From: an uncultured Candidatus Binatia bacterium
GTDB taxonomy: Bacteria > Desulfobacterota > Binatia > UBA9968 > JAJDTQ01
DNA: 64,000 bases
Direction: 5' to 3'
Assembly: GCA_965242525.1 (NCBI GenBank)
Contig: OZ251459.1
Coordinates: 3,872,001 to 3,936,000, forward strand
A model generated the notes under the pieces. That model was not told the origin of the DNA, ran no database searches, and worked only from the letters and a program-made list of their open reading frames with translations. Position numbers and translations under genes: made by a program. This document shows, piece after piece, positions 900-26,792 of this stretch (its first letter is position 1; each line of letters begins with the position of its first letter).

Positions 900-1741
900 A
901 GGCGCTTCTGGTCCTCTGTGAAGGTCTCCACGAGATCGTGTTCGTGCAGCGAAGCCTGGGGGCTGTTGCCGGTTGCTGTTGGGTGCAGAAACCCATAAAA
1001 AACCTGCCCTCGCCATTCGGTACTATTCCTGGCACATCGCCCAAAGGGTTGATTGCGAGGCGTATTGAGAGAAACGTCGACGATCTGACCCTTCGGAGCG
1101 CTGCATATCCCCCGCTGCCGCAGTTCCAGTCCGCCGTATCTGATGAGAAGACAGATACCATCTTCTTGCTGATTCGCGCTAATGGCAAGGACCAGCCCAA
1201 CGCCGTCAACGATCTCTTGGGAGATGTTGAAGAATCAATGGGCATAGGCAGCGTAGACGTAACGAAGTATGCTGTGGCGTTCCTGTTCGACGCGAACACC
1301 GTGGGGATGACGGCGACATTGACCAAGTTTCGCGTGCACTACTATAGCCATTTCGGCGATTTGTCGGAGGCTAGACACTCGAAGTGGGTAGCCACGGCCA
1401 AGTGCCCGGTTGGTGTGTTCGTCTTCCACAAAGCAGCGACGGACGAAACGGGTACGCTTGACGATCACCTGGCACCGATGGTCAAGTCAACTTGGCCGGA
1501 CAGATACACCAGCGCATGCGGCTTTATCGACGACAACAGAAAGCCCGGCGACGAAGTGTCCCATAACAGTGCAGGGCGGCTAAAGGCCATCATCACGTCG
1601 GCCGGACAGTTCGATCATCCTGGATCGCCCATGTCGACCATGATCGCCCGAGATGGCATTCCCAAGACGCGATTTGAAACGTCTCCAATGAGCCAAGCGC
1701 TGGTTGACTTCCTTCAGGGAGTTCCGTGGCACAATTATTGA
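896..1741 (+). CDS. TOPRIM-like protein (DUF3226/OLD-TOPRIM-like), partner of the upstream ATPase
   Basis: ATGA overlap with the ATPase; N-terminal 'LVLCEGLHE' TOPRIM-type EG motif; 'AFLFDAN' as a degenerate DxD. Confidence 0.6.
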   Translation: MKALLVLCEGLHEIVFVQRSLGAVAGCCWVQKPIKNLPSPFGTIPGTSPKGLIARRIERNVDDLTLRSAAYPPLPQFQSAVSDEKTDTIFLLIRANGKDQPNAVNDLLGDVEESMGIGSVDVTKYAVAFLFDANTVGMTATLTKFRVHYYSHFGDLSEARHSKWVATAKCPVGVFVFHKAATDETGTLDDHLAPMVKSTWPDRYTSACGFIDDNRKPGDEVSHNSAGRLKAIITSAGQFDHPGSPMSTMIARDGIPKTRFETSPMSQALVDFLQGVPWHNY

Positions 1742-1772
1742 GATTATCAATCTTGCAGTCCGAGGACGTAGC

Positions 1773-4700
1773 ATGAACGAGAACAGTTTCGTACATCTTC
1801 ACTGCCATACCCAGTACAGCCTGCTGGACGGGGCCAACAAGATCGAGCCGCTGATCGAGCGGGCCAGGGGCATGGGGCAGACGGCCATCGCCATGACCGA
1901 CCACGGCAACATGTTCGGCGCGGTGGAGTTCTACCGGGCGGCGGCCGCCGCGGGGGTCAAACCGATCCTCGGGTGCGAGGTCTATGTGGCGCCGGGCAGC
2001 CGCTTCGACCGACAGGGAGGGGTGGACCGGGGCAACAGGGAGTACAACCACCACCTGATCCTGCTGGCCATGGACAACGAGGGCTACCGCAACCTGTGCC
2101 GGCTGGTGACGCTGGGCTTCCGGGAGGGGTTCTACTACAAGCCGCGCATCGACAAGGAGCTGTTGCGGGAGCACAACGCCGGCATCATCGCCCTGAGCGG
2201 CTGCCTGAGCAGCGAGATGGCCAAGGCCCTGACCCAGGGGTCCCTGGACCAGGCCCGGCAGGTGGCGGAAACCTACCGGGCCATCTTCGACGACCGCTAC
2301 TACCTGGAGGTCCAGGACAACAAGCTGTCGCTGCAGCAGAAGGTCAACGACGGCGTCATCGAGCTCGGCAAGGAGCTGTCCCTGCCCATAGTGGCCACCA
2401 ACGACTGCCACTACCTGGAGCCGGAAGACGCCAAGGCCCACGACATCCTCCTGTGCATCCAGACCGGCAAGGGCCACGACGACCCCAACCGCATGAAGAT
2501 GGACACCGAGGAGCTCTTTCTCAAGTCCACCGCGGAGATGGCCGCCGGGTTCGAGGGCATGCCGGAAGCCGTCACGCAGAGCGCGGCCATCGCCGAGCGC
2601 TGCAACGTGGAGATCGAGTTCGGCAAGTACCACTTCCCGCACTACGAGACGCCGGACTCCCAGAGCCTCGACGACTACCTGGACACCCGCGCCCGCAAGG
2701 GGCTCGCCGACCGGCTCGCGGACGCGGGGGAGGTCGATCAGGACGCCTACCGCGAAAGGCTCGAATACGAGCTCGACGTCATCAAGAGCATGCAGTTCCC
2801 GGGCTACTTCCTCATCGTTGCGGACTTCATCAACTACGCCAAGGACGAAGGCATCCCGGTGGGTCCGGGGCGCGGCTCCGCGGCCGGCAGCCTGGTGGCC
2901 TACGCCCTGCGCATCACCGACCTCGACCCCATACGTCACAACCTGCTGTTCGAGCGTTTCCTGAACCCGGAGCGGCGCTCCATGCCGGACATCGACGTGG
3001 ACTTCTGCATCCGCGGGCGGGACCAGGTGATCCGCTACGTGAAGGACAAGTACGGCGACGACAAGGTGGCCCAGATCACCACCTTCGGGACCCTCAAGGC
3101 CAAGGCCGCCATCCGGGACGTGGGGCGCGCCCTGGGGCTCTCGTTCGCGGAGACCGACGCCATCGCCAAGCTCGTGCCGGCGCCCAAGCAGGGGTTCGAC
3201 TGCCCGCTCTCCGAGGCCCTCAAGCAGGAGCCGCGCCTGAACCGGTTGGCGGACGAAGACCCCCGGGTGGCCCGCCTCATCAACCACGCCCTGCGCCTGG
3301 AGGGCCTCACCCGGCACTCTTCGACCCACGCCGCGGGCGTGGTCATCTCCAACCGCCCCCTGGTGGACTACCTGCCCCTGTACGTGGACCGGGAAGGCGG
3401 CATCGTCACCCAGTACGACATGTCGAGCGTGGAGAAGATCGGCCTCGTCAAGTTCGACTTCCTGGGACTCAAGACCCTGACCCTCATCCACGACTGCCTG
3501 GACCTGGTGCGGGAGAGCCGCGGCCAGGCCCCGGACCTGAAGACCCTGCCGCTGGACGACGAAGAGGCGTACCGCCTCCTGGGCAGCGGCGACACCACCG
3601 GGATCTTCCAGTTGGAGAGCACGGGCATCCGCGAGATGAGCGTACGCATCAAGCCCAACTGCTTCGAGGACGTGGTGGCCATACTCGCCCTCTACCGCCC
3701 AGGCCCGCTGGACAGCGGCATGGCCGAGGAATACATCAAGCGCAAGAGCGGCAAGGAGAAGACCACCTACCTGCACCCGGCCCTGGGACCCATCCTGAAG
3801 GACACCTACGGCGTCATCGTCTATCAGGAGCAGGTCATGCAGATCGCCCAGACCATGGCCAGGTACGGCCTCGGGGAGGCCGACATCCTGCGCCGGGCCA
3901 TGGGCAAGAAGGACCCCGAGGAAATGGCCAGCCAGAGGGAGCGGTTCATCCGGGGGGCCCGGGACAACGGCATCCGGGAGGACCTCGCCACCGCCATCTT
4001 CGACCAGATGGAGACCTTCGCGCGCTACGGCTTCAACAAGTCCCATTCCGCGGCCTACGCCCTGGTCTCCTACCAGACGGCCTACCTGAAGGCCCACTAC
4101 CCGGTGGAGTTCATGGCCGCCCTGATGAGTTCGGAGGTCGGCGACATCGACAAGGTGATCAAGAACCTCGCCGACTGCCGCAAGCAGGGCATCGAGGTGC
4201 TGCCCCCGGACGTGAACGAAGGCGGCCCCCGTTTCACCGTGGTGGGCGACCGCATCCGCTTCGGCCTCTCCGCGGTCAAGAACGTGGGGGAAAAGGCCGT
4301 GGAGAGCATCCGGGAGACCCGCGAGCGCACCGGACCGTTCGAGTCCCTGTTCGACTTCTGCCGGCGGGTGGACCTAAACGTGGCCAACCGGCGGGTGCTG
4401 GAGAGCCTCATCAAGTGCGGCGCCTTCGATTCCACCGGGGTCTTCCGGGCGCGCCTCATGGCCTCGCTGGACGACGCCCTCAAGACCGGCCAGTCGTCCC
4501 GGCGGGACCGGGACAGCGCCCAGATCGGCATGTTCGACATGCTCGAAACGCCGGAGGCCAGGGACCCCATGGACGCCTACCGGTCGGTGGACGAGTGGAC
4601 CGGCGGCCAGCTCCTCGCCTTCGAGAAGGAGGCCCTGGGCTTCTACATCACCGGCCATCCCCTGGACCGGTTCGAGGAGTCCCTGAAACGCCTCCACGCG

Positions 4701-7840: not shown

Positions 7841-7963
7841 GCGTCTTCATCCTTGCAGCATGAACGGAAGTCCGCCTCTGTCCAGTGTCGTTCCCCGTTG
7901 GAATCACGTCCCCCCTTCAGTGGCATCCTGCATTGGACAATCCTGCTGCCCCGAGGCCCTCGC

Positions 7964-10327: not shown

Positions 10328-10368
10328 CCCGTTCGTCCCGAGCGTAGCGGAGCGGAGTCGAAGGACGC
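10328..10368 (+). repeat. REP-like core between hsdR and hsdM
   Basis: cccgttcgtcccgagcgtagcggagcggagtcgaaggacgc. Confidence 0.85.
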
Positions 10369-10419
10369 GCCCAGTCAGAGGACGTCCACCGCGGGCTTCC
10401 GCACCCGGGGGGTTCCGCA

Positions 10420-12015
10420 ATGGGCGTTGCCGGAAAGGAAACGAACGGCTTGAGCAAGGACAAGCGCAGGAAAGCCGCGCCCGGACCCATGACCACCGTT
10501 CAGCGGCTCGACGGCATCATCAAGTCCGCGCGCAAGGTCATGCGCAAGGACAAGGGGCTGAACGGCGACCTGGACCGGCTGCCCATGCTCACCTGGGTCC
10601 TGTTCCTCAAGTTCCTGGACGACATGGAACGGATCGAGCAGGGGCGGGCGGAGTTGGCGGGGCGGGAATACCGTCCGATCATCGAGAAGCCCTACCGTTG
10701 GCGGGACTGGGCGGCTCCGGCCGGCGGCGTCAGCGGGCCGGACCTGCTGGCCTTCCTGGCCGCGGAGCGCACGGCCCGGGCCGACGGCAGCGCCGGTCCC
10801 GGGCTGTTCGCCTATCTCCAGGGGCTGCGCGACGACGACGGCCGGCGCGAGCGGCGCGACGTCATCGCCACCGTGTTCCAGCGGTTGACCAACCGCATGG
10901 AGAGCGGCTATCTGCTGCGCGACGTCATCAACCTGGTGGACGGCATCCACTTCGACTCGTCCGACGAGATCCACACCCTGGGCCGCCTGTACGAGAGCAT
11001 GCTCCGGGAGATGCGGGACGCGGCCGGCGATTCCGGCGAGTTCTACACTCCCCGCCCGGTGGTCCGTTTCATGGTGGAGGTCACCGACCCGCAGCTTGGC
11101 GAGACGGTCCTCGACCCGGCCTGCGGCACCGGCGGTTTCCTCACCGAGGCGTTCCGGCATCTGGAGCGCCGCGCCCATACGGTGGAGCAGCGTGCGGTCC
11201 TGCAAGACCGCAGCATCCAGGGCGGCGAGTCCAAGTCGCTGCCCTTCCTGCTGGCCCAGATGAACCTGCTGCTCCACGGGTTGCACGCCCCGCGCATCGA
11301 CCCGGGCAACTCGCTCCGTTTTCGCCTGGCGGAGATCGGCGAGGAACAGCGGGTGAACGTCGTCCTGACCAACCCGCCCTTCGGCGGCGAGGAGGAGGCC
11401 GGCGTCCTCAACAACTTCCCGGAGGACCGGCGCACCACCGAGACCGCGCTGCTGTTCCTGCAGCTCATCATGCGGCGCCTGAAGCGCGGCGGCCGCGGAC
11501 GCGCCGCGGTGGTGGTGCCCAACGGCACGCTGTTCGGCGACGGCCTGTCGGCGCGCATCAAGGCCGACCTGCTGGAGCGCTTCAACCTGCACACCATCGT
11601 CCGTCTGCCCGAAGGCGTGTTCGCGCCCTACACCGACATCCCCACCAACCTGGTCTTCTTCGACACCAACGGCGCCACCGAGACCATCTGGTACTACGAG
11701 CAACCCCGGCCGGAGGGCCGCCGGAAATACTCCAAGACCGCGCCCCTGCTGTACGAAGAATTGGCCGACTGCCTGGCATGGTGGAAGGACCGGAAGGAGC
11801 ACGAACGCGCCTGGAAAGTGGACGCCAAGGGGCTGGTTCGGCGCGACGAGCAGGGCCGGGCGGCGGCCTGCAACCTCGACCTCAAGAACCCCCATTCGGG
11901 CGAGACCGTGGACCACCGCGCCCCTGCCGAAATCGTGGACGGCATCATTGAAAAGGAGCGCCGCATCCTCGCCATCATGGACAAGATCAAGGCGACGCTG
12001 GGGGAGGGGGAGTGA
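10420..12015 (+). CDS. hsdM: Type I R-M methyltransferase subunit (start may be ATG 10489)
   Basis: GEFYTPR, DPACGTGGFL (motif I), NPPF (motif IV). Confidence 0.95.
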   Translation: MGVAGKETNGLSKDKRRKAAPGPMTTVQRLDGIIKSARKVMRKDKGLNGDLDRLPMLTWVLFLKFLDDMERIEQGRAELAGREYRPIIEKPYRWRDWAAPAGGVSGPDLLAFLAAERTARADGSAGPGLFAYLQGLRDDDGRRERRDVIATVFQRLTNRMESGYLLRDVINLVDGIHFDSSDEIHTLGRLYESMLREMRDAAGDSGEFYTPRPVVRFMVEVTDPQLGETVLDPACGTGGFLTEAFRHLERRAHTVEQRAVLQDRSIQGGESKSLPFLLAQMNLLLHGLHAPRIDPGNSLRFRLAEIGEEQRVNVVLTNPPFGGEEEAGVLNNFPEDRRTTETALLFLQLIMRRLKRGGRGRAAVVVPNGTLFGDGLSARIKADLLERFNLHTIVRLPEGVFAPYTDIPTNLVFFDTNGATETIWYYEQPRPEGRRKYSKTAPLLYEELADCLAWWKDRKEHERAWKVDAKGLVRRDEQGRAAACNLDLKNPHSGETVDHRAPAEIVDGIIEKERRILAIMDKIKATLGEGE

Positions 12016-13160
12016 TGGGGTGGCCGGTCGTCAAACTCGAAGAAGTTCTCGATCAAGATCTGGATTTAGTAAACGATCTTGAGCCGAAAATCTACAAGAA
12101 ACTTTCGGTGAAGCTCTACGGCAAAGGAGTGATGCCGGACAAGCCTGTTGATGCTCGTGTCGTTCGCATGAAAAAGCACCAAATTGCCAGGGAAGGACAG
12201 GTAATCGTCTCTGAAATCTGGGCCAAGAAAGGGGCAATCGGAATCGTCCCCGCCGATGGAAGCGGCGCTTTGTGTACAAGCCACTTCTTTCTCTTCAACC
12301 GAAACCCTGATCGAGTTACAGAGGGTTGGCTTCGGTATCTTTTCGTTGCAAACTTCCTTGAACCACAATTGAGTGCTGAGGCCAGAGGAACGACAGGCTA
12401 CGCATCTGTCAGGCCGCGCCACTTCCTTCAGTGTGAAGTTCCCCTCCCGCACCTTGGCGAGCAGCGACGGATCGTCGCCAAGCTGGACAAGGTAGCGGGG
12501 TTGGTGGAGGAACGAAGAAGGGTCATCGAGACAGCCGAGCGCGACGCCCATGCCATGCTGTCCAACGCCTTCCGGGAGGTTATCGACGGCGCGCCGTACC
12601 GTCCAATGGCCGAGGTCGCGCCGCTGGTCCGTCGACCGGTTGTGGTGGAGCCGGACCAACAGTATACCGAGATAGGCGTAAAGAGTTTCTACAATGGTAT
12701 TTTTCACCGGCGCACGATGAACGGGTCTGAATACAGTTGGCAGAAACTCTTCTGGATCAGGGAGGGTGATCTTGTCTTCAGCAACCTGATGGCTTGGGAG
12801 CAAGGGATTGCCGCGGCCTCGGCTGAAGACAACGGTTGTGTCGGAAATCACCGAATGCTGACGTGTGAAGTGAATCGCACCTTGGCAACTCCGCCTTTTC
12901 TGCTTGCCTACTTCAGAACGGAAGAAGGATTCATGCAGGTAGCGGAGCATTCCCCTGGAAGCATCGCCCGCAACAAGACCTTATCATCAAAAAAGTTGCC
13001 AACGATCGAAGTTCCCGTGCCGCCCCTCGACCGGCAACGGTGGTTCGGCCGCTTGCAGGCACAGGTTCACCAGATGGGGGCGATACGGGAAGGCGCCGGC
13101 CAGGACATGGACGCGTTGCTGCCGGCAATGCTACAAGGTGCGTTTCGGAGACGTGGATGA
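12012..13160 (+). CDS. hsdS: Type I R-M specificity subunit
   Basis: Two TRDs separated by conserved 'VPLPHLGEQRRIVAKLD'; second conserved block 'VPVPPLDRQ'; overlaps the hsdM stop. Confidence 0.92.
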   Translation: MMGWPVVKLEEVLDQDLDLVNDLEPKIYKKLSVKLYGKGVMPDKPVDARVVRMKKHQIAREGQVIVSEIWAKKGAIGIVPADGSGALCTSHFFLFNRNPDRVTEGWLRYLFVANFLEPQLSAEARGTTGYASVRPRHFLQCEVPLPHLGEQRRIVAKLDKVAGLVEERRRVIETAERDAHAMLSNAFREVIDGAPYRPMAEVAPLVRRPVVVEPDQQYTEIGVKSFYNGIFHRRTMNGSEYSWQKLFWIREGDLVFSNLMAWEQGIAAASAEDNGCVGNHRMLTCEVNRTLATPPFLLAYFRTEEGFMQVAEHSPGSIARNKTLSSKKLPTIEVPVPPLDRQRWFGRLQAQVHQMGAIREGAGQDMDALLPAMLQGAFRRRG

Positions 13161-14908
13161 GGGTTGACGCCAAGCGTCTGTGGGAGGCGGTGCGCCTCGG
13201 CGAGGACAGCGACCTCGAACTGAAGGAAGCGCGCTTCCGCGGCCGGCGCGTGTCCGCTCCCGCCCACGACGACCTTGCCGACGAATTCGCCGCGTTCGCC
13301 AACGCCCGGGGCGGCCGCCTCCTGCTCGGCGTGAGGGATGATCGAACGCCGCAGTCCCTCGACCCTGCGCAGCTCGATGCGCTGATGGACCTGGTCAAGG
13401 AGGTTTGCGAGGACAGCATCGAGCCGCGGCTGGACTTCGACGCCGTTCGCGTCCCCGTTCCCTCTCCCGGCGATGGCGGCGCCCTTGTTGTCGAGGTTCC
13501 GGCGGGGGACTCCGTCCACCGCTCACCCGGCGGCTACTACCGCCGCCGCGGCGACGCCAAGCGGCAAATGCAGCCGGACGACATTCGCCGCCTGCTGCAA
13601 GCCAGAGGCCAGTCCGCCGCCTCCACGGATACGCAGACGGTCCCCGACACCAGCTTCAACACCTTGCGCCCGGAACTGTGGCGGCGCTACGCGAGTTCGC
13701 GCGCCAGCGAGCCTGCCGAAATCACCCTCTCCAAGTTGAAGTTCGTCAAGACGGACCGGCAGGGAGCGCTCCGCGTTACGGTCGGCGGCGTATTGCTCGG
13801 CTGCGAGGAGCCTCGCGAGTGGCTGCCGAACGCCTACATCCAAGCCGTCTGCTACGACAGCGTTCGCATGGACGGCAACTGGCAACTCGACGCCCAGGAC
13901 ATCGGCGGGCCGCTCGACAGACAGATACGGGACGCCGTGCGTTTCGTGATGCGCAACCGCCGGGTGGCCGCGCACAAGGCGCCGGGACGCAGTGAAGTGC
14001 CGCAATACAGCGAACGGGCGGTGTTCGAGGCGGTGGTGAACGCGGTGGTGCATCGGGACTATGCGGTTGCCGGCTCCCACATTCGCCTGTTCATGTTCGA
14101 AGACCGCCTGGAGCTCTATTCCCCCGGCGGCCTGTGCAACTCCATGACCACGGACGACCTCCGCATCAGCCAATTCACCCGCAACGAACTGCTGGCGTCT
14201 CGGCTTGGCCAATGCCCCGTGGGCGACATTCCCGGCGCCGGCGGCAGGGATTACTTCATCGAGCGGCGCGGCGAGGGCGTCGCCGTAATCGAGGACGAGA
14301 CCTTCGCGCTCACCGGCAGGAAGCCCGTCTTCGAGATGATCGGGGAACGGGAGCTGAAGCTGACGCTGCCGGTGGCCAGCCCGCCGTTGCCGGACGGCAT
14401 CGCCGTGCGCGTGCGGGTGCGCGATGACCGCAGCGGTGAACCGCTGCGGGACGCCCATGTGCTGATGCTCTATCCCGACAAGACCTGTCGCGAGGGGCGC
14501 ACCGACGCCTTCGGCCGTGCGGATTTCACGGTGCACTCCCGGCTGCCGATGACCGTGCTGTGCGCCGCGCCGGGGTTCGCCGCGCGTGTGGCGAGGGACT
14601 GCATTCCGAACGGACCGCTGGAACTGCGCATGGCGCCGCTGCCGGGCGGGGGGTCGCTGATAATCGCCAGTGGAACGGGACGCCTGCCGGGCATCGAAGG
14701 GCGGCTCAACCCCATCCTCGACAACCACGACAGAACCTACCTGTACGCCGGCAACGTCGCCATCAACGACGGCCTGCAGCAGCCGGTCCATTTCGCCTTG
14801 AACGAGCCTGTCCGCTTGACGGACTCGCTGGGCGCCCATGCAACCCTGTGGTTCCGGGAGGTGCTGGGGGAATCCTGCGTGTTCGACTACCGTTTCGAGA
14901 CCGACTGA
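13157..14908 (+). CDS. Schlafen/AlbA_2 + HATPase_c_4 (RecG-C-like) protein with an extra C-terminal beta-rich domain
   Basis: 'GEDSDLELKE' and 'AFANARGGRLLLGVRD' (AlbA_2); 'EAVVNAVVHRDY', 'SPGGL', 'RNELLA', 'ERRGEG' (HATPase_c_4). ATGA overlap with hsdS. Confidence 0.8.
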   Translation: MRVDAKRLWEAVRLGEDSDLELKEARFRGRRVSAPAHDDLADEFAAFANARGGRLLLGVRDDRTPQSLDPAQLDALMDLVKEVCEDSIEPRLDFDAVRVPVPSPGDGGALVVEVPAGDSVHRSPGGYYRRRGDAKRQMQPDDIRRLLQARGQSAASTDTQTVPDTSFNTLRPELWRRYASSRASEPAEITLSKLKFVKTDRQGALRVTVGGVLLGCEEPREWLPNAYIQAVCYDSVRMDGNWQLDAQDIGGPLDRQIRDAVRFVMRNRRVAAHKAPGRSEVPQYSERAVFEAVVNAVVHRDYAVAGSHIRLFMFEDRLELYSPGGLCNSMTTDDLRISQFTRNELLASRLGQCPVGDIPGAGGRDYFIERRGEGVAVIEDETFALTGRKPVFEMIGERELKLTLPVASPPLPDGIAVRVRVRDDRSGEPLRDAHVLMLYPDKTCREGRTDAFGRADFTVHSRLPMTVLCAAPGFAARVARDCIPNGPLELRMAPLPGGGSLIIASGTGRLPGIEGRLNPILDNHDRTYLYAGNVAINDGLQQPVHFALNEPVRLTDSLGAHATLWFREVLGESCVFDYRFETD

Positions 14909-14991: not shown

Positions 14992-15486
14992 CTACACGAA
15001 ATCGGTATAGACGATGCGGCCGTTCTGCCTTGCCCAGGCTTCGGAGAATCCCACGTGGGAGATCACGTTGCTGCTTTGATCGAGCTGGCGTTCGGTCTCT
15101 TTGAGCACGACGGCCGGATCCATTTCATAGATGCACTTGCACCTTGTCTGTTCGTTCCTGTAGAAGACTGCCAGATATACCATCCTGTTCCGGATGATTC
15201 GCTCGAGGGACTTGGCGCGTTTGTCGCCAGGTTCCCTGAACATGCGGTCCAGTTGTCCCGTTCCGCCTTCTTGACAGGACAGATATTCGTATTGTTCATC
15301 GGGACGATTCGGAGCATGGGCATCCGCGTGGCGTTTTGAATGGACCAGTTCATGTCCCAATATGTCTGCAATGATCATCTCCTTCACCAGTCCTGGCTGA
15401 AGCAGGTTGGTAATGCCAACGGACCTCGCCAGTTTCGTGGCTTCGAGGATCAGTTCGATGATTTTGCGATAGATGGGTCGGGTCAC
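14992..15486 (-). CDS. Putative type II restriction endonuclease, PvuII-like
   Basis: 164 aa, overlaps the MTase end. Collinear similarity to PvuII recalled from memory: LARSVGITNLLQ, ADAH...QYEYLS, IYEMDP, WARQNGRIVY. Confidence 0.6.
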   Translation of the reverse strand: MTRPIYRKIIELILEATKLARSVGITNLLQPGLVKEMIIADILGHELVHSKRHADAHAPNRPDEQYEYLSCQEGGTGQLDRMFREPGDKRAKSLERIIRNRMVYLAVFYRNEQTRCKCIYEMDPAVVLKETERQLDQSSNVISHVGFSEAWARQNGRIVYTDFV

Positions 15487-16280
15487 TGGAAAAGCATCCT
15501 TGCCAGATGTTCATCGATCTTCCGAAGCCTCTCGTTTGCCGCCTTGACAAATTCCTTGTCCCGTTCGATTCCGATGAAATGGCGGTTGAGTCGCTTGCAG
15601 ACAACCGGACACGTGCCGACACCGGCAAATGGATCCAGTACCAAATCATCCTCCGCGGAGCTGGCCTTGACCAGGCGCTCCATGATCTGTTCGGGCTTCT
15701 GGATGGTATTGAGCGCGTCGCGGTTGAGCAGCTCTTTCGATTTGTAGGTCAATTGCTTGATGTCTCCCCACACGTCGCCGGGGTTCTTTCCGTCTCCGTT
15801 GAACTTCGTCTTCCGGTACCGTCCGTTTCTGACGGAAGGCACCCGTTCACAACGCAAGCGGTGGTCCAGTTCGACGAGTTGCGGAACGCGGACGGCGTCA
15901 AGGTCGAAGGTCCTCGGTTTGTCGCCCTTGATGAAGTAGCAGATGACATCATGGTTGTTGGTGTACTTGAGGCGCCCCTGGGCGAGTCGGCTCGGTTGGT
16001 ACCAGATGATCCGTGACCTGAGGTTCAGAAAAGGGCGATAGTCGATGAAGTCGATGCAGTTCGGTTTCCCGAAAAGGTACAAAGCGCCCCCTTCTTTCAG
16101 TTTCCTGGAAAATATGCGGATCAGATCCAGGTTGTATTCCTGGATGTTCTGGATTCTGTCCCATTGATTGCCCGTGACGCCGTACGGGCCGTCGCAGATG
16201 ACCAGGTCGATACTTCCGTCGTCGATCCGGGGAAACAAGTCGAAGGCGTCTGCCTGGTAGATGCGATCCAGCTCGATCAT
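15483..16280 (-). CDS. Beta-class N6/N4 DNA methyltransferase
   Basis: Motif IV 'DLVICDGPY' near the N-terminus; 'IQKPEQIMERLV'; motif I 'VLDPFAGVGT' near the C-terminus. Confidence 0.9.
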   Translation of the reverse strand: MIELDRIYQADAFDLFPRIDDGSIDLVICDGPYGVTGNQWDRIQNIQEYNLDLIRIFSRKLKEGGALYLFGKPNCIDFIDYRPFLNLRSRIIWYQPSRLAQGRLKYTNNHDVICYFIKGDKPRTFDLDAVRVPQLVELDHRLRCERVPSVRNGRYRKTKFNGDGKNPGDVWGDIKQLTYKSKELLNRDALNTIQKPEQIMERLVKASSAEDDLVLDPFAGVGTCPVVCKRLNRHFIGIERDKEFVKAANERLRKIDEHLARMLFQ

Positions 16281-16378: not shown

Positions 16379-19300
16379 TCACACATCCGGAATGACGAGA
16401 GGGAGAGAGCAGTTCGTCGACACCGGCTCCACTTCGCTCCCATTGTTGCGGCCACAACGAGTCAATTTGAAGTGACGAGTGGTCGCACCGAAGGTGTTTG
16501 CAATGTCGGCGATTGCACGAGACGTGGCGACGACCGCATGCCCTTCGGCTTCCGTGTTGTCAAATACAGGGCCAGCGCGTCCGTACCATCCGTCCACCCA
16601 CCAGATAGTTTCGACCGCAAGCTCCCCAGCCACAGTTCGCCAACAACCCGGTCGGGTAGGATCGGCAATCCATGCCAGCTTTGCTGCAAATTCAGGATTG
16701 AATGAAAGCCAGTCAGCGCGGACCTGATGAAACCGGTCGCCAGAGTTCTCGATGATCAAGGGATCTCCATTTTTCGGCAGTCTTCCGACAGGTGCGGTTG
16801 CGAGGTCCTTCAAGGTCATTGAGTGGCAAGAGGCGAGGATTCGGTCTTCAAGAGACAATTTCGTTCCGATGGTCGTTCCACACTGGAATGTTTCTTCCAG
16901 GTAACCCCAGTTCAAAACTCTCAGACGACTTCTTGCACCGATAAGCACCCGATCCTTGTATATGGACATGGTGAGATATTGCTCAAGCCGATCCTTGATC
17001 TCTTCGCGCCATCGGGCAATGGTCTGGTCATGACCTGCCGGCGGCGCAGGTGGGAGGACCTCCGGGCGGCTCTCCGCAGTGCGGCTCAAGGCATCGATGT
17101 CCAAAGTACGAAGTCGGCGGCACATTTCTGGTGACGCGTCTTCGAGCAAACCCGCGTCTCGTATATCAGCCAGGACTCGGCCGAACGCAGCGCGCGACGC
17201 GGCAATCCTCATAGTTGAGTATCTGAATTGAATCTGGGAGGAGGAATTGAGAGTACTCCGAACGACTTCCGGATCCGGGAGTGTAGCTAGTGCGGTGGAG
17301 GCATAGTGTGCCGCGATCGCTAATAATGTATGGAAGTTCAACCCCAGGTCGTCTGCAAGTATTGCATATTGCTCCAGGTGAGGGATGAGCAATACAGGGA
17401 TGGAACCAATAGGCGTGTCTGCCGGCTGAGGCAAATTCAATTGATACAACGGAGAAAGAGGTCGGTGGACGGATGACGATGAGGGGTCAACAAGATCACG
17501 GATAATTTGGCTAGGGTGGTTCGACAGTATGCATACTAGAGATTGAAGGGAGGCGGGAATGACGTATCCGTCTTGAGATTTGGCTCCAGCAAGGCAGCGT
17601 CCAGTTCGCTCCAAAATCTCGTCGCTTGAGTTAGGTTGGGCAAATCGGGCAAGTGCCTCGGCAACGAATCTGAATTTATTTCCAAGTGCGCGAATAACGA
17701 TGGCGGTAGCGGCGTCACGAACGAGAAAGGCAGGATGCGAAAGGTGTCCTACTGCAAGTTCCGCAAGTGCAGTCTGGGGATTTGATTCAGCGGCGGCCAC
17801 GCGTCGATCTCCATTGGGCGTGGGCATCCACCAGTAACATCCATGGTCTTGGAGAACATCCGGGCCGGGTAGTATTAGGCTTTCCGCGATCCCTTCGATA
17901 TAGCTGCGGACCTCCCGCCATATCGTCGGGGCGTCGAGGTCGGGATCGAGTATCGCGACAAGGTTATCCAGTTCGTTCAGCAACATGGGCGCCAGCCAAC
18001 GGCTTTCGTTAAGGTCATGAACGAGATACTTACACACATTCGCGCGCGCATCTGCATCGCCTAGCCGAATCGCAACGGCGGCTGCGTGTTGGCGGGTTCC
18101 GCCATCATATAGACGTGACCAGGACATACTTTCTGCCTCTTGTAGGATTCTGTTGGCAAACGACAACGCGGTTTTCGGGTATCCGTTTCGCTCGGCGGCC
18201 TTGCCAAGAGAAAGAAAAACTCGCATATTTTCTCTCGATCCGTCGTCAAATAGTTCGGTCAGCTTTTGCAGGTCTTCCTGTGTGAAGGTCAGTTGATCGA
18301 TGATCGGTGCCCAATGGAACAGTGAATCGTCAGTCTCTCTATGGCGAAAGGAGATGATGTCGTCGGCATTCCTTATATGCGAGGCAACATCGTCGCGTGC
18401 TATCCTCTGACCATCGGACAGTACCAGTGCATCGTAATGATGGTTATTTGATTTTTTCAGATTTTTGTGCTTGTATTTCCCGTCCTCGGTCCCGAGGCCG
18501 AGACCTTGCCGCCATTCGTTTCGCGTAGTCGATAGCGCATACTTGTCGGTACGAGTGGTGACCGACTTCGCCAGGATCGTGTGTGTTCCCTTCTTACCAC
18601 CACTTTTGGCCGCCACGATCAGAGACTCGGCGAGCTTTGGATGCGCACGGTTCGCCGCAGGAGCAAGCAACTCGGCAGTGATGTCCGCCGCTAGCTCGAC
18701 AGTGGCGATCTCTTCGGCACCACTATGTGTCAGGAGCCCGTCAATCAAGGCAGCGAGACACTCAAGATGATCGACCGTATGGTGCCGAACGAGAAATTCG
18801 AAAATGCGGACAGCCGCCACCGGATCTGCAGGGACTACTGCCGAGGGAAGATGGACTGCTGCCGATCCAGGAGCCCCTTCGGTCGTTGGGTTCGTCGCTA
18901 CGAGAACGCGGGCGAGCCAAGCGGCATCCTCGACACATCCTTCGCCTTCCGGTTGTGCGAGAGCCTTTGCCAGCCAGGAAACCCAAGTACCGCACTGATA
19001 ATCCTTGTGATATCCGACCCCAAACGCCATTCTTATCAATGAAAGTACGATACGGTATGCGCTTTCCTTCTCACCATTCTTGGAATAACGAACTACGAGG
19101 CTGGCCATATTTGCCACTCGCTCATCCATCGATTCTGAGAATATGGTTTCTTCGACTTCACAGAGTGTCTTCCGATAGAAAGAAACGTTTGCGCCTGCTG
19201 ATTGGAGATAATCGGCCAGTTCAAGTCGTAATGCCATTGGCCACTCGTCCGGATGGTCCTCGAACAGGCGCATGAGAGTATCACTTAAGCGCTGAGGGAG

Positions 19301-22300
19301 GGGATTATGGTAGTTTCTGCTATACCTGTGAGCTACATTGATGGCTATACTAAATAGTTGAGATCTTTTCTGTGTAATCAAACTATGATTAGCGCTACTT
19401 TGGCGTTCCGTTCGCAAAAAGATGGAGAAGACCAAAGTAATTTCTCTCCAGACTTCGTTCGCTGGTACCTGTCGATTCGAGATCGTCTCTGCGTCCAGGC
19501 GCCCCAAGGTTCTGACCGCCGAATCGATGCAGGCAGCGAGTTCGATGGCGTCGACGTCACCATGTACGGAAGCGTCCCGAGATATTCCGCTTCCAGCCGG
19601 AGCATCAGGAGGAACGGACTCCGGAATCTCTTCATCATATGAGGCGAGAAGGTGCCGAAGCCGCCAGTACCGAAAATGGCGACAGATAATATTGAAATCG
19701 TGACTGAAAGCTAACGTTTCCACTGTTAGGGCATTGCTATATGGCGTATGATCAAGCAGGGAAATTGCTTGATCGACATTTCCGTAATAGAAAAGAAGAA
19801 GCTCGGCAGCGTCGATTCTGAGAGTGGAACGTCGGACAGTGTAAATAGCAGGCGATCCAAAGAAGATTTAGCAGCGTCTGTTGTTGAAGCCTGTTCAAGT
19901 AACCTCTGCTGTGCACGGACGCGGAGATGTATTAGCGTCGCGATCTTGGAATTCCCGTCACCGTCTCTATATTCCTCGTCCTCGCAAGCCTCACGCCGAA
20001 GCCGGTAGTCCTTGAGCTGATTTACATGTTCAGCAAGAGCCGAATCGATCATGGTGAGCGCCTTTTCATCACTCTTGGTCGTCATCGCGTCGATAAGCGC
20101 TTTATTCATCCTTCGATAGCGAAGCCATCGCTCGGCTTCTGCGTGCTTGTCGTTTGGCGTATTTTTCGGCTCTTTCTCGACTTGACTCCGGATTGCAGCG
20201 ATGATGTATTCTGGCGGACGAAAAAGCACGGCGGCTCGTGTCCAGGCTAAAGCGGCGTCATCTTCCTGACCGGCCACTGATGTTCGCTTATGGTCATCGA
20301 GGCCATCCTGCTCTATCTGATCAAAGAGTCGTCGTCCTGCGGAATCATCTGCGTCTCCCAGTTTTGCGGCCAGTTCATAGGCATACGCAAGTGGTACTTG
20401 CCGCGTCTCAGATCCACACCAGGAAATGGCCTCCTTGACCAGCCCAGCTTCGTACAGAAGGGCGGGCATATTGACATTCTCAAGAGATGAAGTTCGAGAT
20501 GTCAACTCGACAGAGGCGAGGAGTAATCGAAGTATCCCTAAAACGTCGGTGCGGTTCGCGGCGACGTCCAGTGCGAAAGCGATATCTTGTCGAATGAGAG
20601 CGGGTGAACGTAGGCGTCGATATTGTTCACGAAAAACGCTTTGTTGCGCCAAGCTCATGACTTTGTCGTACTGGTTTCCGCAGTATCGGTGATAAAGTTG
20701 TTCTCCGGCAATGTTGTGGTCGGTTGCATTGGCGCAAAGGTCAGCGATACGTCGGTGAGTTCGGACTTCCATGCGGGGATCAGGGCACTGTTCGTCGCCC
20801 CAGGCAGTGCGGTCGGCGGTGAATTGTCGAAAGGAGTCATGGAAAAATCGCCATCTGTCCTGGTAGCGATTAAACAGATACAGGAATTTATCCCGGAAGG
20901 TTCTCACGGCAGCAGACGGTGCCCAGTCGGAAAGCCACCCCGTTGTGAATCCGTTTCGCAATCGAGAACAGACGGCAAGAATGTCCACGATATCGTTGTC
21001 GTCTCTCACTTCATCCCAAATCGCCCGATACTCGGCCTCGATGTCGCCTGAGTATGCGGGTAGTGCGGCAAGTATTTCCGCGTCATGTCTTTCGCCGCCA
21101 TTGCGGAGACGGTTCAGGAGATAACTTAGTGCCAGCGGATACCCGCGACTGAGTTCGACGATGCGCTGGTGAGTCTCCGCTGCTAGATTCTTCGTGATCG
21201 GCAGGCGGCGGCAGATCTTGAGGATGGCTGTCGGAGGCAGGCAGTGATGCTGAAGGTTGACAATGGTCTCTCGTTCGTGGAGTTGTTGTTGTGCATACGC
21301 GTGAAGAGGCTCCAGAGTCCGACTGCCGACTATAAACAGGACGCCGTCAGGCGTTTCGTCGGGACGAGGCAATTCTGAGAGCAGGTCGTCGTTGCCGGAA
21401 TAGTCGCGCCGGACATGGTCGAGACCATCGACGACAATGATCGTCCGACGACCCGTACGCTGGAACTCGGCACTCGCCGTGTCAAGCTTGTTGGTGAACT
21501 GTTGTCGGAGCGTCTCGATTTCGGTGCTGGGAAGTTCAGGTTCGTTACCGGAATTATCGCCGCCGCTCAGCATGAGCATCATGTCGTGCAGGAAGCCTCG
21601 AGCGCTCAGGCGTGTTTTGGCCGGCGCAGTGCCGGAAATGTAGGCATAATAACGGACGATTCGATCAGTGCTTCCTGAGAGTGATTGGCTCAGCAGTGTC
21701 GATTTTCCGGAGCCTGGTGGGCCGATCACAGCAAAATAGCCGCGGTCATGGCGAGTGATCGATTGGGATAGCTGATCGATTGCGTCGGCAAGCGGCTCAT
21801 AGGTGTCCAGGTCGACGGGAAATTCATGGCGGCTACGCAGACGCGGCCGATTTTCCCAATGCATCAGGTCAAGAACATCGTCGGCATTCATTTCGACGAC
21901 ATCGGATGCTTCCGAGACGCAACGTTTGAGGGTGTCTGAAAGTGCGATGATGTCCGATCGTCGTGTTGATTGTGACGTCGGCAGACCCGACTCGACAGCA
22001 ACATCAATGTGCAGTGACTGGAGGAATCGCTCAAACTTATCGCCCGCGAGCCCGCTGGCGTCTTGAAGCTTCTCAAGAGCTGGCCGCCATTCAGTGGGGA
22101 CGTCTTCGAGAGTTATATTCTTCAAGCGGAGTGGTTTGAGCACTCGGGTGAGGAAGGCGCTGAAGTGATCCGGAGATGGCTGGTTTGCACGACTCCCTAG
22201 TTGATCGTTGACCGAGGCAACCTGATTGGTGACGAGATGGACGTAGCTATCCTTCCTTTCTCTCTGTATAGAAATCCAGCCATCAGAAAGCGCCCGGACC

Positions 22301-22584
22301 AAAGACGCTCCGGATTTTCCGCTACGTGTGCGTTGATTCCGGACGACGTCATTGAAAGTGAGAGCATTGGGGGACTCGACCCTCTTGAACTGATAACCGT
22401 CAACGCGCCCGCGTCGGATGAGCAGCAGATCGTCAACACGCCCGGCGTCAGGGTCCGTCAGCCGCAGAGATTCCAGGTCGTGATTGAGCAGCGCGTCATA
22501 GACAAGTGCTGCGATGTGATCGTATTGCCACTGATATCCGCGAAGAGCGGAGCGTTCACCGGACGCCGGTGGTCTGTTCATCAC
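16379..22584 (-). pseudogene. Nuclease-STAND NTPase-helical repeat protein (Avs/AVAST-like, ~2,070 aa), split by a frameshift near 19,810
   Basis: ORF 19726-22584 has a PD-(D/E)xK-type N-terminus (ALRGYQWQY...VDDLLL...YQFK), Walker A GPPGSGKST, Walker B IVVDGLD and FFHDSFRQF. The frame of ORF 16379-19723 stays open upstream (DAAELLLFYYGNVDQAISLL...) to ~19,868. Lower GC than the host. Confidence 0.8.
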
Positions 22585-22786
22585 CGACCTCCTATTCGCA
22601 TGAAATAGACGGACCCAGTTCGAGGTCCTGACTCCATATCCAGCATCCTGCCTTCAGATAGGTCGAAACGAGATTGAAAGCGTGTCGATCTATACGGACA
22701 ATCCTACCAGAAGGGGCCTGAGAAATCTAGTGATGGCGCGATTTTGAGAGGTGTCGCGCTGGCCGGCAGAGTCACGTATGCCATGT

Positions 22787-23797
22787 GGCTCTTCCGGCTT
22801 TCCTATGGGTAAGGTAGGCGAGGGAGGGTGTGCGACAGGGCAGAGGGAGCGGCAAGGGAGGGAGCAATGCGAGACCGGGAGTTGTACGCGAGGATACTGG
22901 GGATCGAGGCGCCGTGGCGGGTGGAAGGGGTGGAGTTGAACCTGGAGGAGGGAGAGGTGGTGGTACAGGTGGAGCACGCGGGAGGGGGGTTGCGGTGTCC
23001 GGAGTGTGGGCGTGGCGGGAGCCGGTATGACACGCGGCAGCGTCGGTGGCGTCATCTGGACACGTGCCAGTACCGGACGATCCTGGCGGCGGGTGTACCC
23101 CGGGTGGAGTGCGAGGAGCACAAGGTGAAGCAGGTGCGGGTTCCGTGGGGGGAAGAGCGGTCGCGGTTCACGGCGATATTCGAGGCGTTGATCCTGGACT
23201 GGCTGCAACAGGCGAGCATTGCGGGGGTGGCGGCGATGATGGGGCTGAGTTGGATGAGGTGGACGGGGTGAGGCGTCGCGGGGTGGAGCGGGGCTTGGAG
23301 CGGCGGCAGGAACAGCGGAAGCTGCCGGGAGAGGGGGCGCAACGGCTCAAGGGCAGCCGCTACCTGTGGCTGAAGAACCCCCGGCACATGGACTGGCAGC
23401 GATGGAAAGCGTTCGGGGCGCTGCGGGACAGCGCGCTACAGACCGCCCGGGCCTGGGGCTACAAGGAGCACGCCATGACCCTGTGGGAGTACCGCAGCCG
23501 CGCCTGGGCGCGCAAGGCCTGGCTGGCCTGGTATCGCTCGGCCATCCGTTGCCGCCTGGAACCGGTCAAGCGTGTGGCCCGCATGGTTCGGAAGCACCTG
23601 GAAGGCATCCTCACTGCAGTGGTCCAGCGGGTCACCAACGCCCGGGCCGAAGGGATCAACTCCGGTATCCAGTGGGTGAAGTACCGCGCCCGCGGCTACC
23701 GCAACCGTCAACGCTTCCGGGACGCCATCTACTTCCACTTCGGTGGCCTCGATGTCTACCCCCATGGCGTCGCTCGAAGACCCCTTACCCACACGAA
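22787..23797 (+). mobile_element. Degenerate ISL3-family insertion sequence (transposase pseudogene from 22867)
   Basis: Left IR GGCTCTTCCGGCTTTCCTATGGGTAAGG; zf-ISL3 CPECG...WRHLDTCQY; frameshift near 23,250; catalytic middle deleted; C-terminal TNARAEGINS...ARGYRN; partial right IR ccttacccacacgaa. Confidence 0.9.
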
Positions 23798-23970
23798 TGT
23801 TTCCAAGGATACTTCCCGTAGTCGGTTTCTCTACTTGCCCGCGAAAGAGGCCGGCAAGCCCCTTGTCTTCCGTGGCGAAGCCCAGGGACACGTTGCGCTT
23901 CATCGGCGTCCAACCCCTGTCATGGAGTCTATTGAGTGAATCGCGGTCGGTCAAGAGAGCCTGCGGTGCG

Positions 23971-24166: not shown

Positions 24167-24802
24167 ATGAAATTTCAGGATCTGGTGGCCATCGTCGCGG
24201 ACGAGCCGGTGTTCGAAACGGGGTTGCTGTTGGCCGGGCCGGGCGACCCCGCCCACGTCCAGCGCCAGCTTTCGCGCTGGACACGGACGGGCCGGATCCG
24301 GCAACTGCGCCGCGGGCTGTACACGCTGGGCCCGCCGTGGCGCAAATGCGTCCCGCATCCTTTCCTGGTAGCCAATCGACTCGTGCCCGGCTCCTACGTC
24401 AGCGGCGTCTCCGTCCTGGCTCATGCCCAGGTGATTCCCGAGTACGTTGCCGAGGTCACCAGCATCACCGGACGGCGGCCGCACGTCCAAAGCTCGTCTT
24501 CGGGGCGGTTCTCGTTCCGCCATCTCAAGGCCGACTTCCGGTTCGGCTACCGCCAAGTGGATCTGGGCGAAGGCCAGCAGGCGTTCGTGGCGGCCCCCGA
24601 GAAAGCGTTGCTGGACCTCGTCCATCTGCAACCCGGCGGCGACGACCAAGCCTACCTGCAGGAGCTGCGCCTCAACTTCGACCCGCTCTGCATGGATACC
24701 CTGAGCGAGTTCGCGGCACGGTGGGGGACGCCGAAGATCACACGGGCCGCCCGCTGCCTCCGCGAGTTGGCCGCCCACGAGCCGAAATACGAGACGTTGT
24801 GA
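24167..24802 (+). CDS. Type IV TA antitoxin, AbiEi-like
   Basis: wHTH 'QLSRWTRTGRIRQLRRGLY', 'GSYVSGVSVLAH', 'APEKALLD'; coupled to the nucleotidyltransferase toxin. Confidence 0.85.
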   Translation: MKFQDLVAIVADEPVFETGLLLAGPGDPAHVQRQLSRWTRTGRIRQLRRGLYTLGPPWRKCVPHPFLVANRLVPGSYVSGVSVLAHAQVIPEYVAEVTSITGRRPHVQSSSSGRFSFRHLKADFRFGYRQVDLGEGQQAFVAAPEKALLDLVHLQPGGDDQAYLQELRLNFDPLCMDTLSEFAARWGTPKITRAARCLRELAAHEPKYETL

Positions 24803-25599
24803 AAGACCACCTCCTGACGTTGGTCCGGGAACGCGAACCCTTGCAGGCGCGAAACCTCGTCCGCGAGTACCTGCAGGCCCGCATCCTCGGCGCCATGCAG
24901 CGCGCCGGCGCAATGACGACCTTGGCGTTCCAGGGCGGCACGTGCCTGCGTTTCCTCTTCGCGTTGCCGCGTTATTCCGAAGACCTCGATTTCACCCTGG
25001 AAGGCGAACCGTCGCAGTACGACCTGCCGCGGTACCTGCGATCCCTTCGCACGGAGCTGTCCGCGGAGCGGTATCAGGTCGATCTCCGCGTCCGGCAACA
25101 CCGCGTGGTGCACAGCGCCCTGGTGGGCTTTCCCGGCCTGCTGTACGAGCTCGGCCTGTCACCGCGCGCCTCGGAAGCGCTGGCGATCCGGATCGACGTG
25201 GACACCCGCCCTCCCGCGGGCGCGGAGACCGCCGTCAGCCTGGTGCGCCGGCACGTGACCCTGAGGCTCTACCACCATGACCGGCCTTCACTCCTGGCCG
25301 GCAAGTTGCACGCCGTCCTTCAACGGCCTTACACCAAGGGGCGCGACCTCCATGACCTGATCTGGTACCTGAGCGACCGCGCCTGGCCGGCGCCCAACCT
25401 GCCGCTGCTGAACGCCTCCCTCCGGCAGACCGGCTGGGCGGGCGCGGAGTTGACGCCGGATTCCTGGCGGCAGACCGTCGCCCGTCGCCTCGATGCCCTG
25501 GACTGGCGGCGCGCCGCCATGGACGTAGCCCCCTTTCTCGAGCGCCAAGAGGACGTAGAGCTGGTCACGAAGGACAACGCAAGGAGCTTGCTCGTCTGA
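24799..25599 (+). CDS. Type IV TA toxin, AbiEii/AbiGii nucleotidyltransferase
   Basis: 'FQGGTCLR...RYSEDLDF', 'KLHAVLQR...KGRDLHD'; GTGA overlap with the antitoxin. Confidence 0.9.
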   Translation: MKDHLLTLVREREPLQARNLVREYLQARILGAMQRAGAMTTLAFQGGTCLRFLFALPRYSEDLDFTLEGEPSQYDLPRYLRSLRTELSAERYQVDLRVRQHRVVHSALVGFPGLLYELGLSPRASEALAIRIDVDTRPPAGAETAVSLVRRHVTLRLYHHDRPSLLAGKLHAVLQRPYTKGRDLHDLIWYLSDRAWPAPNLPLLNASLRQTGWAGAELTPDSWRQTVARRLDALDWRRAAMDVAPFLERQEDVELVTKDNARSLLV

Positions 25600-25622
25600 C
25601 GGCAGGCCGGTCTGCTGGTGCG

Positions 25623-26792
25623 CTACACGCTCGCGAGCCGGGTGGCCAGTTCTCGAACCCCGATGGCCTCCACGTCTTTCGCCATCGGGTAGCGTTCGTC
25701 TCCGGCGTACGCCACGAACGTCCGGTCCGGGTTCAGGTCCTGGCGCGCGGTGTGGAAGCCGCGGCTGACCCTGGCGCTCAGGGAACGCTTGATCTCGACG
25801 GCCCAAGTCTGCCCGTTCGCATGTTCGATCACCAAGTCCACTTCCGCGCCCGCGCTGGTCCGGTAGAAGGAGGCCGACGACGGCCACGGCAGCGCCGAGA
25901 GCAGGGTCTCGATGACCCAACCCTCCCAACTGCGCCCCACCACGGGGTGGCCTGCCAGTTCGATGGACGAGGGAATGCCCAGCAGGGCGTGGACCAGCCC
26001 GCTGTCCCGCACATAGACCTTCGGCGACTTCACCAGGCGCTTGCCCACGTTGGCTCGCAGGGGCGTCAAACGGCGCACCAGCAGCAGGTCCGCCAGCAGG
26101 TCGATGTAGCGCGTCACGGACTGGGCGCTCACCTCCAACGCCTGGGCCAACCACGAGGCGTTCAGGATGGCGCCCTGGTTGTGGGCGAGCATGGTCCAGA
26201 GCCGCTCCAGGGCGGCGGCCGGGACGCGCGGTCCGAACGCGGCGACGTCGCGCTCCAGGTAGGTCCGGATGAAGTCCCTGCGCCACGCCAGGCTCGCCCG
26301 GTCGGAGGCCGCCAAATAGCTGTCCGGGAAGCCGCCGCGCAGCCAGAGCCGCTCCCGGTCCGCTCGCCGGTCCTCCACTTCCAGCACGGAAAACGGCCCC
26401 AGGTGGACGTAGCCGATGCGTCCCGCCAGCGACTCGCCGGACTGGCGCAGCAGGTCCATGGATGCGGAGCCCAGCACGAGGAAGCGGCCCACGCCCTTGC
26501 CCTTGCGCCGTCCGCGGTCGATGACGCCGCGGAGGGTCTGGAACAACTCGGGGGTGCGGTGGATCTCGTCCAGTATGACGAGGCGGTCCTCCAGGCCCTC
26601 CAGGAACAGGTTCGGCTCGCTCAGCCGCCCGCGGTCGTCGCCGTTCTCCAGGTCCAGGTAAACCGCGTCCCGCGTGCGGGCGATTTCCAGCGCCAGCGTG
26701 GTCTTGCCGGCCTGCCGCGGCCCCAGGAGCGCCACCGCTGCCTGGCGGGTGAGGGCCTCCAGGACTTGGTCTTTGACTCCTCGAGGCAGCAT
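25623..26792 (-). CDS. AAA_14 ATPase with DUF4143 (wHTH + PD-(D/E)xK) domain
   Basis: GPRQAGKTT, ILDEIH, ESLAGR, RGGFP, KSPKVYVRDSG, EVDLV...VEIK. Confidence 0.9.
   Translation of the reverse strand: MLPRGVKDQVLEALTRQAAVALLGPRQAGKTTLALEIARTRDAVYLDLENGDDRGRLSEPNLFLEGLEDRLVILDEIHRTPELFQTLRGVIDRGRRKGKGVGRFLVLGSASMDLLRQSGESLAGRIGYVHLGPFSVLEVEDRRADRERLWLRGGFPDSYLAASDRASLAWRRDFIRTYLERDVAAFGPRVPAAALERLWTMLAHNQGAILNASWLAQALEVSAQSVTRYIDLLADLLLVRRLTPLRANVGKRLVKSPKVYVRDSGLVHALLGIPSSIELAGHPVVGRSWEGWVIETLLSALPWPSSASFYRTSAGAEVDLVIEHANGQTWAVEIKRSLSARVSRGFHTARQDLNPDRTFVAYAGDERYPMAKDVEAIGVRELATRLASV

Follow-up and report, generated by a model that had tools for sequence, protein, structure and literature searches.

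A frameshift-broken nuclease-STAND gene related to Avs1 and Avs3 in a Candidatus Binatia genome and its intact relatives

The locus and its neighbourhood

The window, that is, the whole stretch of 64,000 nucleotides analysed here, carries two consecutive open reading frames on the minus strand, ORF1 (22584-19726, 952 aa) and ORF2 (19723-16379, 1114 aa). Together they represent one gene of ~2,060 aa that has been broken by a frameshift. The likely start codon of ORF1 is an ATG at 22581, which is preceded by an AGGAGG site, and the GC content of the gene is 54%, compared with 66% for the window. ORF1 contains the nuclease motifs VDDL (22437-22426, minus strand) and QFK (22392-22384, minus strand), followed by a Walker A motif, GPPGSGKS (21723-21700, minus strand), and a Walker B motif, IIVVDGLD (21441-21418, minus strand). 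Its Pfam matches were AAA_16 and AAA_22, with an N-terminus of the PD-(D/E)xK type. Against the PADLOC and NCBIfam models, it matched Avs1b over residues 270-699 only, with 91 bits for a cutoff of 1,500. No meaningful family match was obtained for ORF2 in the Pfam, PADLOC and NCBIfam scans.

The gene lies in a defence-island setting, with restriction-modification (RM), AbiE and PDC-S01 neighbours. It is flanked on one side by a type I RM operon, an AlbA_2/HATPase gene and a type II methylase gene, and on the other side by a broken ISL3 element, AbiE and a PDC-S01-like ATPase. The type I operon is EcoEI-like (R, M, S) and is followed by the gene of a single AlbA_2 / HATPase_c_4 / carboxypeptidase-regulatory-like protein (7853-14908, plus strand). 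Positions 14992-16280 (minus strand) hold a type II N4/N6 methylase gene together with a 164-aa ORF that overlaps its end, and the two are probably a type II RM pair. This small ORF had no sequence match in Pfam, PADLOC, NCBIfam or PDB; it may resemble PvuII-type endonucleases. The ISL3 element (22788-23800, plus strand), ~200 bp upstream of the gene, is frameshifted and internally shortened, and several partial copies of it occur elsewhere in the genome. In the sequencing data sets X1 and X2, contigs connect an end of ISL3 (23798) with position 16135, inside the methylase gene, and their depth resembles that of the main genome. The probable source of this join is a co-occurring relative into which an IS has inserted; the 7.6-kb segment might alternatively exist as a circle. 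Beyond ISL3, the region 24167-26792 contains an AbiEi/AbiEii pair and a PDC-S01-like AAA_14-DUF4143 ATPase.

Domain anatomy and the frameshift

Motifs, AF2 models (pLDDT 85 for the N-half and 91 for the C-half) and fold matches all agreed with the predicted succession of a Cap4-like nuclease, a STAND NTPase, helical repeats and a beta-rich C-terminal domain, which is the general effector-STAND-repeat sensor architecture of Avs proteins. The nuclease effector (residues 1-247; 21841..22581, minus strand) was assigned by structure match: it aligned with Cap4 (7yib) over 205 residues in VIA (Z 14.4, rmsd 3.6, model residues 12-247), and its match to the PADLOC model SAVED_PDDEXK was weak (E 7e-5). 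The catalytic residues, D50/D51 and QxK (Q64-x-K66), are near-invariant across the family, as are the Walker motifs; in an alignment of 90 rows, D50/D51 were invariant and Q64 was conserved in 98%. The STAND NTPase (20722..21840, minus strand; Pfam AAA_16/AAA_22) comprises NBD, HD1 and WHD with intact Walker A and B motifs, and matched the Avs1b HMM with E-values of 5e-29 and 3e-26.

The sensor begins with a helical, TPR-like N-terminal part (19810..20721, minus strand), which was recognized from AF2 secondary structure and by hhalign to Avs1b (E 8e-9). The remainder of the helical solenoid (16961..19810, minus strand) was delimited using the AF2 model (pLDDT 91), an alignment to SeAvs3 residues 900-2087 and collinearity with Avs1b; it contains the conserved motifs FGVGY[R/H]KDYQ (19021-18995), TEGA and HLSHP. 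According to AF2, the helical repeats occupy ~1,270 aa, beginning in the N-half near residue 600 and ending in the C-half near residue 950. The protein ends in a beta-rich domain of ~190 aa (16379..16960, minus strand; DSSP strands at C-half model residues 954-1137), whose position and fold match the 'C-terminal sensor' of Avs3 within the alignment of the whole C-half, which extends to model residue 1143 and 8dgc_A residue 2087.

When intact homologues were compared with the window by tblastn, the frame changed at 19807-19816 (minus strand) with an overlap of ~10 nt, which implies a small deletion that leaves the gene ~10 nt short. Past this point, the first frame continues through ~28 off-frame codons to a TAA at 19728-19726. 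The break might be an assembly or sequencing error in a gene that is actually intact, and it should be noted that the adjoining ISL3 is frameshifted too in this near-complete assembly of seven contigs. However, Logan contigs of X1 (depth 212) and X2 covered 16577-23334 without a single difference or gap, although both may represent the source sample, and an X4 contig from a second study was identical over 19348-19886 (depth 3.9). No indel near 19810 was listed in the contigs of X1, X2 and X4, which as contigs hide rare alleles; X5 lacked coverage of the junction. An error is largely refuted by these matches and appears highly improbable, and the break is real because it is identical in assembled contigs from two studies. 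The lesion is also recent, judging from the strongly conserved columns, of which one half has retained 120 of 124 and the other 60 of 64. With the sensor cut near residue 925, the window copy is most likely a pseudogene and thus probably inactive, a point that the original prediction had not raised. Selection for gene loss by a resident terminase acting as a self-trigger was considered as a cause and rejected, as searches of the genome itself with three terminase Pfam families gave no match.

Distribution of intact relatives and of split sister receptors

An unbiased scan of GTDB genomes identified 31 loci of this family (L006-L036), of which 23 are intact, 4 are broken and 4 run off the end of their contig. 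Each of the 23 intact loci consists of a single ORF of 1,936-2,129 aa; the view that the two ORFs are one frameshifted gene was confirmed in this way, and the possibility that they are separate in all homologues was removed. In a further search that was limited to long proteins, and hence favoured fused forms by design, 801 of the 7,996 scored proteins matched; the best 120 of these 801 are all single chains across the junction, and the beta-rich C-terminal domain is included in 116 of them. A profile search with ORF2 retrieved 603 representatives at E<=0.001. The family was found in Proteobacteria, Actinobacteria, Chloroflexi, Bacteroidetes and others, with full-length members on plasmids of E. 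coli, Vibrio cholerae, Nitrosococcus and Sinorhizobium. A homologue was present in only 1 of 24 genomes of the same genus as the window, and 11 of 5,426 E. coli genomes carried a member. Existing annotation calls these proteins 'ATP-binding protein' only. ESM Atlas returned unnamed clusters only, and no match was found in the phage collection. The intact relatives make up a widespread subfamily that is not captured by standard annotation models, and a new HMM for it would improve defence annotation. The family is of modestly greater interest than the window copy, which is probably dead.

Clustering of the neighbours of 29 loci (255 ORFs) revealed no conserved partner gene, only scattered recurrences such as RM genes, in agreement with the original remark that no small partner gene is evident. 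A PADLOC match at E<=1e-25 was seen in 13 of 25 genome loci, a count based on 76 hand-picked neighbours and no background control. The homologue on a Nitrosococcus plasmid (L003:285-10955) adjoins Dsr1. Another relative (L025:7620-13508) has the full sensor and no score against the nuclease profile, and its effector may have been swapped or truncated.

A conserved split was ruled out for this family: the four broken relatives and the sole homologue from the same genus are interrupted at other positions than the window gene, breaks in the relatives lying near residues 320, 465/730, 820/1600, 1200 and 1900. Natural splits do occur in sister Cap4-STAND receptors. Seven such loci (L043, L044, L047, L048, L053, L055 and L058) have a two-gene sensor, in which a gene of ~1,450 aa is followed by an overlapping gene of ~480 aa carrying the C-terminal end of the sensor, with overlapping stop and start. 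The second ORFs match the last ~430 columns of the window family (E 6e-8). We infer that these receptors correspond to the split-TPR Avs1 variant mentioned in PMC13601566. They belong to a different NTPase clade from the window family and are split near residue 1,450, whereas the break at ~925 is a lesion unique to the window copy.

The existence of such sisters and of the published variant raises the question of whether the window copy could still work as a two-chain receptor, in which ORF2 re-initiates at a GTG and its product assembles with that of ORF1. The GTG lies two bases past the ORF1 stop, at a stop-start spacing (TAACAGTG) that permits coupling, and conserved residues are kept in both halves. 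However, the GTG has no Shine-Dalgarno sequence, the natural split lies ~480 aa from the C-terminus and not at ~925, and no relative breaks at the window site. Moreover, ORF1 would carry ~28 off-frame residues, ORF2 would lack ~29 residues, and a broken ISL3 lies ~200 bp upstream. A functional two-chain receptor is accordingly improbable, and we favour a gene inactivated by a recent frameshift.

Sensor relationships and comparison with known Avs systems

Structure comparison placed the sensor close to SeAvs3. With the N-half model, the top Foldseek match was terminase-bound SeAvs3 (8DGC; E 1.2e-17, next entry 6.4e-10), and VIA aligned 622 residues to it (Z 19.0, rmsd 24.6). SeAvs3 was also the top Foldseek match of the C-half (E 6.3e-11, TMq 0.50; next entry E 1.8e-4, TMq 0.10), and VIA superposed C-half model residues 1..1143 on 900..2087 of 8dgc_A (960 aligned, rmsd 7.8, Z 15.4; next row 9.9). 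Identity to SeAvs3 was 11-15%, and the rmsd of the C-half ranged from 7.8 A (VIA) to 13 A (Foldseek). Thus, as modelled, the whole sensor, including the beta-rich domain, has the SeAvs3 terminase-sensor fold. PDB sequence searches with either ORF or with a 97-row profile found no Avs protein; fold searches alone did. Avs4, Avs5 and Avs7 were absent among the C-half fold matches listed, from a library that may lack Avs7 and Avs2 structures.

Sequence profiles pointed to Avs1b. The sensor profile aligned with four operon-verified Avs1b proteins over 824 columns (hhalign probability 97.4, E 1.3e-11, 12% identity), and the separate segments were all collinear with Avs1b (STAND E 2e-34, TPR-N 8e-9, mid 1e-5, late 2e-4), leaving the nuclease and the beta-rich domain as the unmatched parts. 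An HMM of the family C-half matched three of four Avs1b sensors (E 5e-8 to 7e-7) and none of four Avs3a sensors, these four sequences being the whole of each reference alignment. Against the Avs3a profile, built from four Avs3a-like proteins that fall below the cutoff of that model, only the STAND segment matched (E 4e-6). By sequence, therefore, the sensor is remotely homologous to that of Avs1b and collinear with it, and the family is nearer to Avs1b than to Avs3a. No sequence signal was detected between the Avs1b and Avs3a sensors either. The beta-rich domain alone gave no match to the Avs1b, Avs2 or Avs3a profiles (E 0.1-0.6), and hhalign against three Avs2-like proteins gave weak scores only. 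As an aside, the GVGYRKD loop was compared with the terminase-contacting basic residues of SeAvs3; the alignment was non-significant (E 0.52) and no correspondence is claimed.

No Avs model reached its cutoff. Avs1b (cutoff 1,500) scored 91 bits for the window gene and 67-138 bits for 17 intact homologues, Avs3a gave no match at E<=0.1 for the window or at E<=0.001 for the 17 homologues, and the Avs2, Avs4 and Avs5 models of PADLOC and NCBIfam gave none; genome searches supplied no Avs4 or Avs5 reference proteins. In NTPase trees, the family formed its own branch, apart from the protease-type Avs1b and from Avs3a, with support of 94/93 in the first tree, from which a Walker A pattern had dropped seven rows including all four Avs3a, and of 87/97 in the second. 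The second tree included Avs3a on a branch 6.6 long, so that the position of Avs3a is unsure and the deeper order is not resolved. The initial statement that the sensor could not be assigned to a named Avs type thus holds as far as HMM cutoffs are concerned, but not in view of its SeAvs3 fold and remote Avs1b homology. For the same reasons, the suggestion of an unfamiliar sensor that may recognize a new phage ligand was not supported.

A sensor with the SeAvs3 fold and remote homology to the Avs1b sensor has the large terminase as its default expected ligand. Avs1-3 are described as activated by terminase in PMC11564622, and PMC13601566 reports that the predicted structure of Avs1 is strongly similar to Avs3 and that a beta-rich C-terminal sensor common to Avs2 and Avs3 binds the terminase ATPase. 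The intact gene is therefore likely to encode a single-protein, nuclease-armed receptor of the Avs1/Avs3 type, most probably sensing the large terminase, with the window copy probably inactive. If the receptor works like SeAvs3 as described in PMC13601566 and PMC11564622, a monomer of the phage large terminase would be wrapped by the helical solenoid and the beta-rich domain, and the STAND domain would then oligomerize, probably into a tetramer. The N-terminal Cap4-like nucleases would thereby be brought together, cut DNA and abort the infection; in the window copy, the frameshift of ~10 nt severs the sensor near residue 925. A complex prediction with C-half sensor residues 560-1140, T7 terminase 1-345, ATP and Mg scored 0.00, which is evidence neither way.

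An unlikely alternative is that the same scaffold senses a phage protein other than terminase; the family would then be one of Avs11-24, such as the portal-sensing Avs11, or a separate sensor cluster. The separate NTPase clade and the 12% sensor identity to Avs1b are consistent with it, as is the existence of Enterobacteriaceae members, the type of homologue cloned by Lee et al. (PMC13581612). On the other hand, Avs3 and, by prediction, Avs1 are the known carriers of the fold, and they sense terminase. For the E. coli homologue, identity with EcAvs19 was rejected: the Q70/K72 numbering fits when counted from its second Met, but the C918/C920 pair is absent under either start. The corresponding numbering for CkAvs11 is Q71/K73. 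Rather less probable is that the family is a widespread single-gene class of Avs sensors which escapes current HMMs and uses a retained Avs1/3 solenoid to recognize a different phage ligand. Extra triggers are possible within one Avs family, such as KpAvs2, according to PMC13601566. The 2026 catalogue of Lee et al. (PMC13581612) comprises 589 STAND clades and 684 sensor clusters (TM 0.40) and names Avs7-24. The family is common enough that it is probably included, possibly inside the cluster of Avs1 or that of Avs3. A search of seven source-data files of that paper, which hold no cluster listing, found none of six family accessions. Our literature search found no paper specifically on this subfamily. 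The terminase-sensing reading can be addressed directly, as the intact E. coli member (WP_072643907.1) makes the ligand testable.

Compared with Avs3a (8DGC, NF041816), the family has the same size class and the same order of Cap4 nuclease, STAND, TPR solenoid and beta-rich C-terminal sensor, and SeAvs3 is the best structural match for both halves. It differs in a sensor sequence without detectable relation (E 0.12) and in having no small partner gene. Compared with Avs1b (AVAST type 1 protease-STAND, NF041810 / PDLC02159), it shares the closest NTPase by HMM and profile, together with matching motifs (FGVGYRKDYQ versus SMGPSWYKEDQ in Avs1b, and HLxHPxW versus a similar HPxW). It has, however, a Cap4-like nuclease where Avs1b has a trypsin-like protease, and its 29 examined loci are without the avs1a and avs1c genes that true Avs1 operons have. 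These proteins thus constitute a distinct subfamily: their NTPase and sensor are related to those of Avs1b, but the protease is replaced by a nuclease, and Avs1a and Avs1c are missing. With an NTPase and a sensor related to Avs1 on the one hand and a nuclease like that of Avs3 on the other, the family links two terminase-sensing types that share no detectable sensor sequence.
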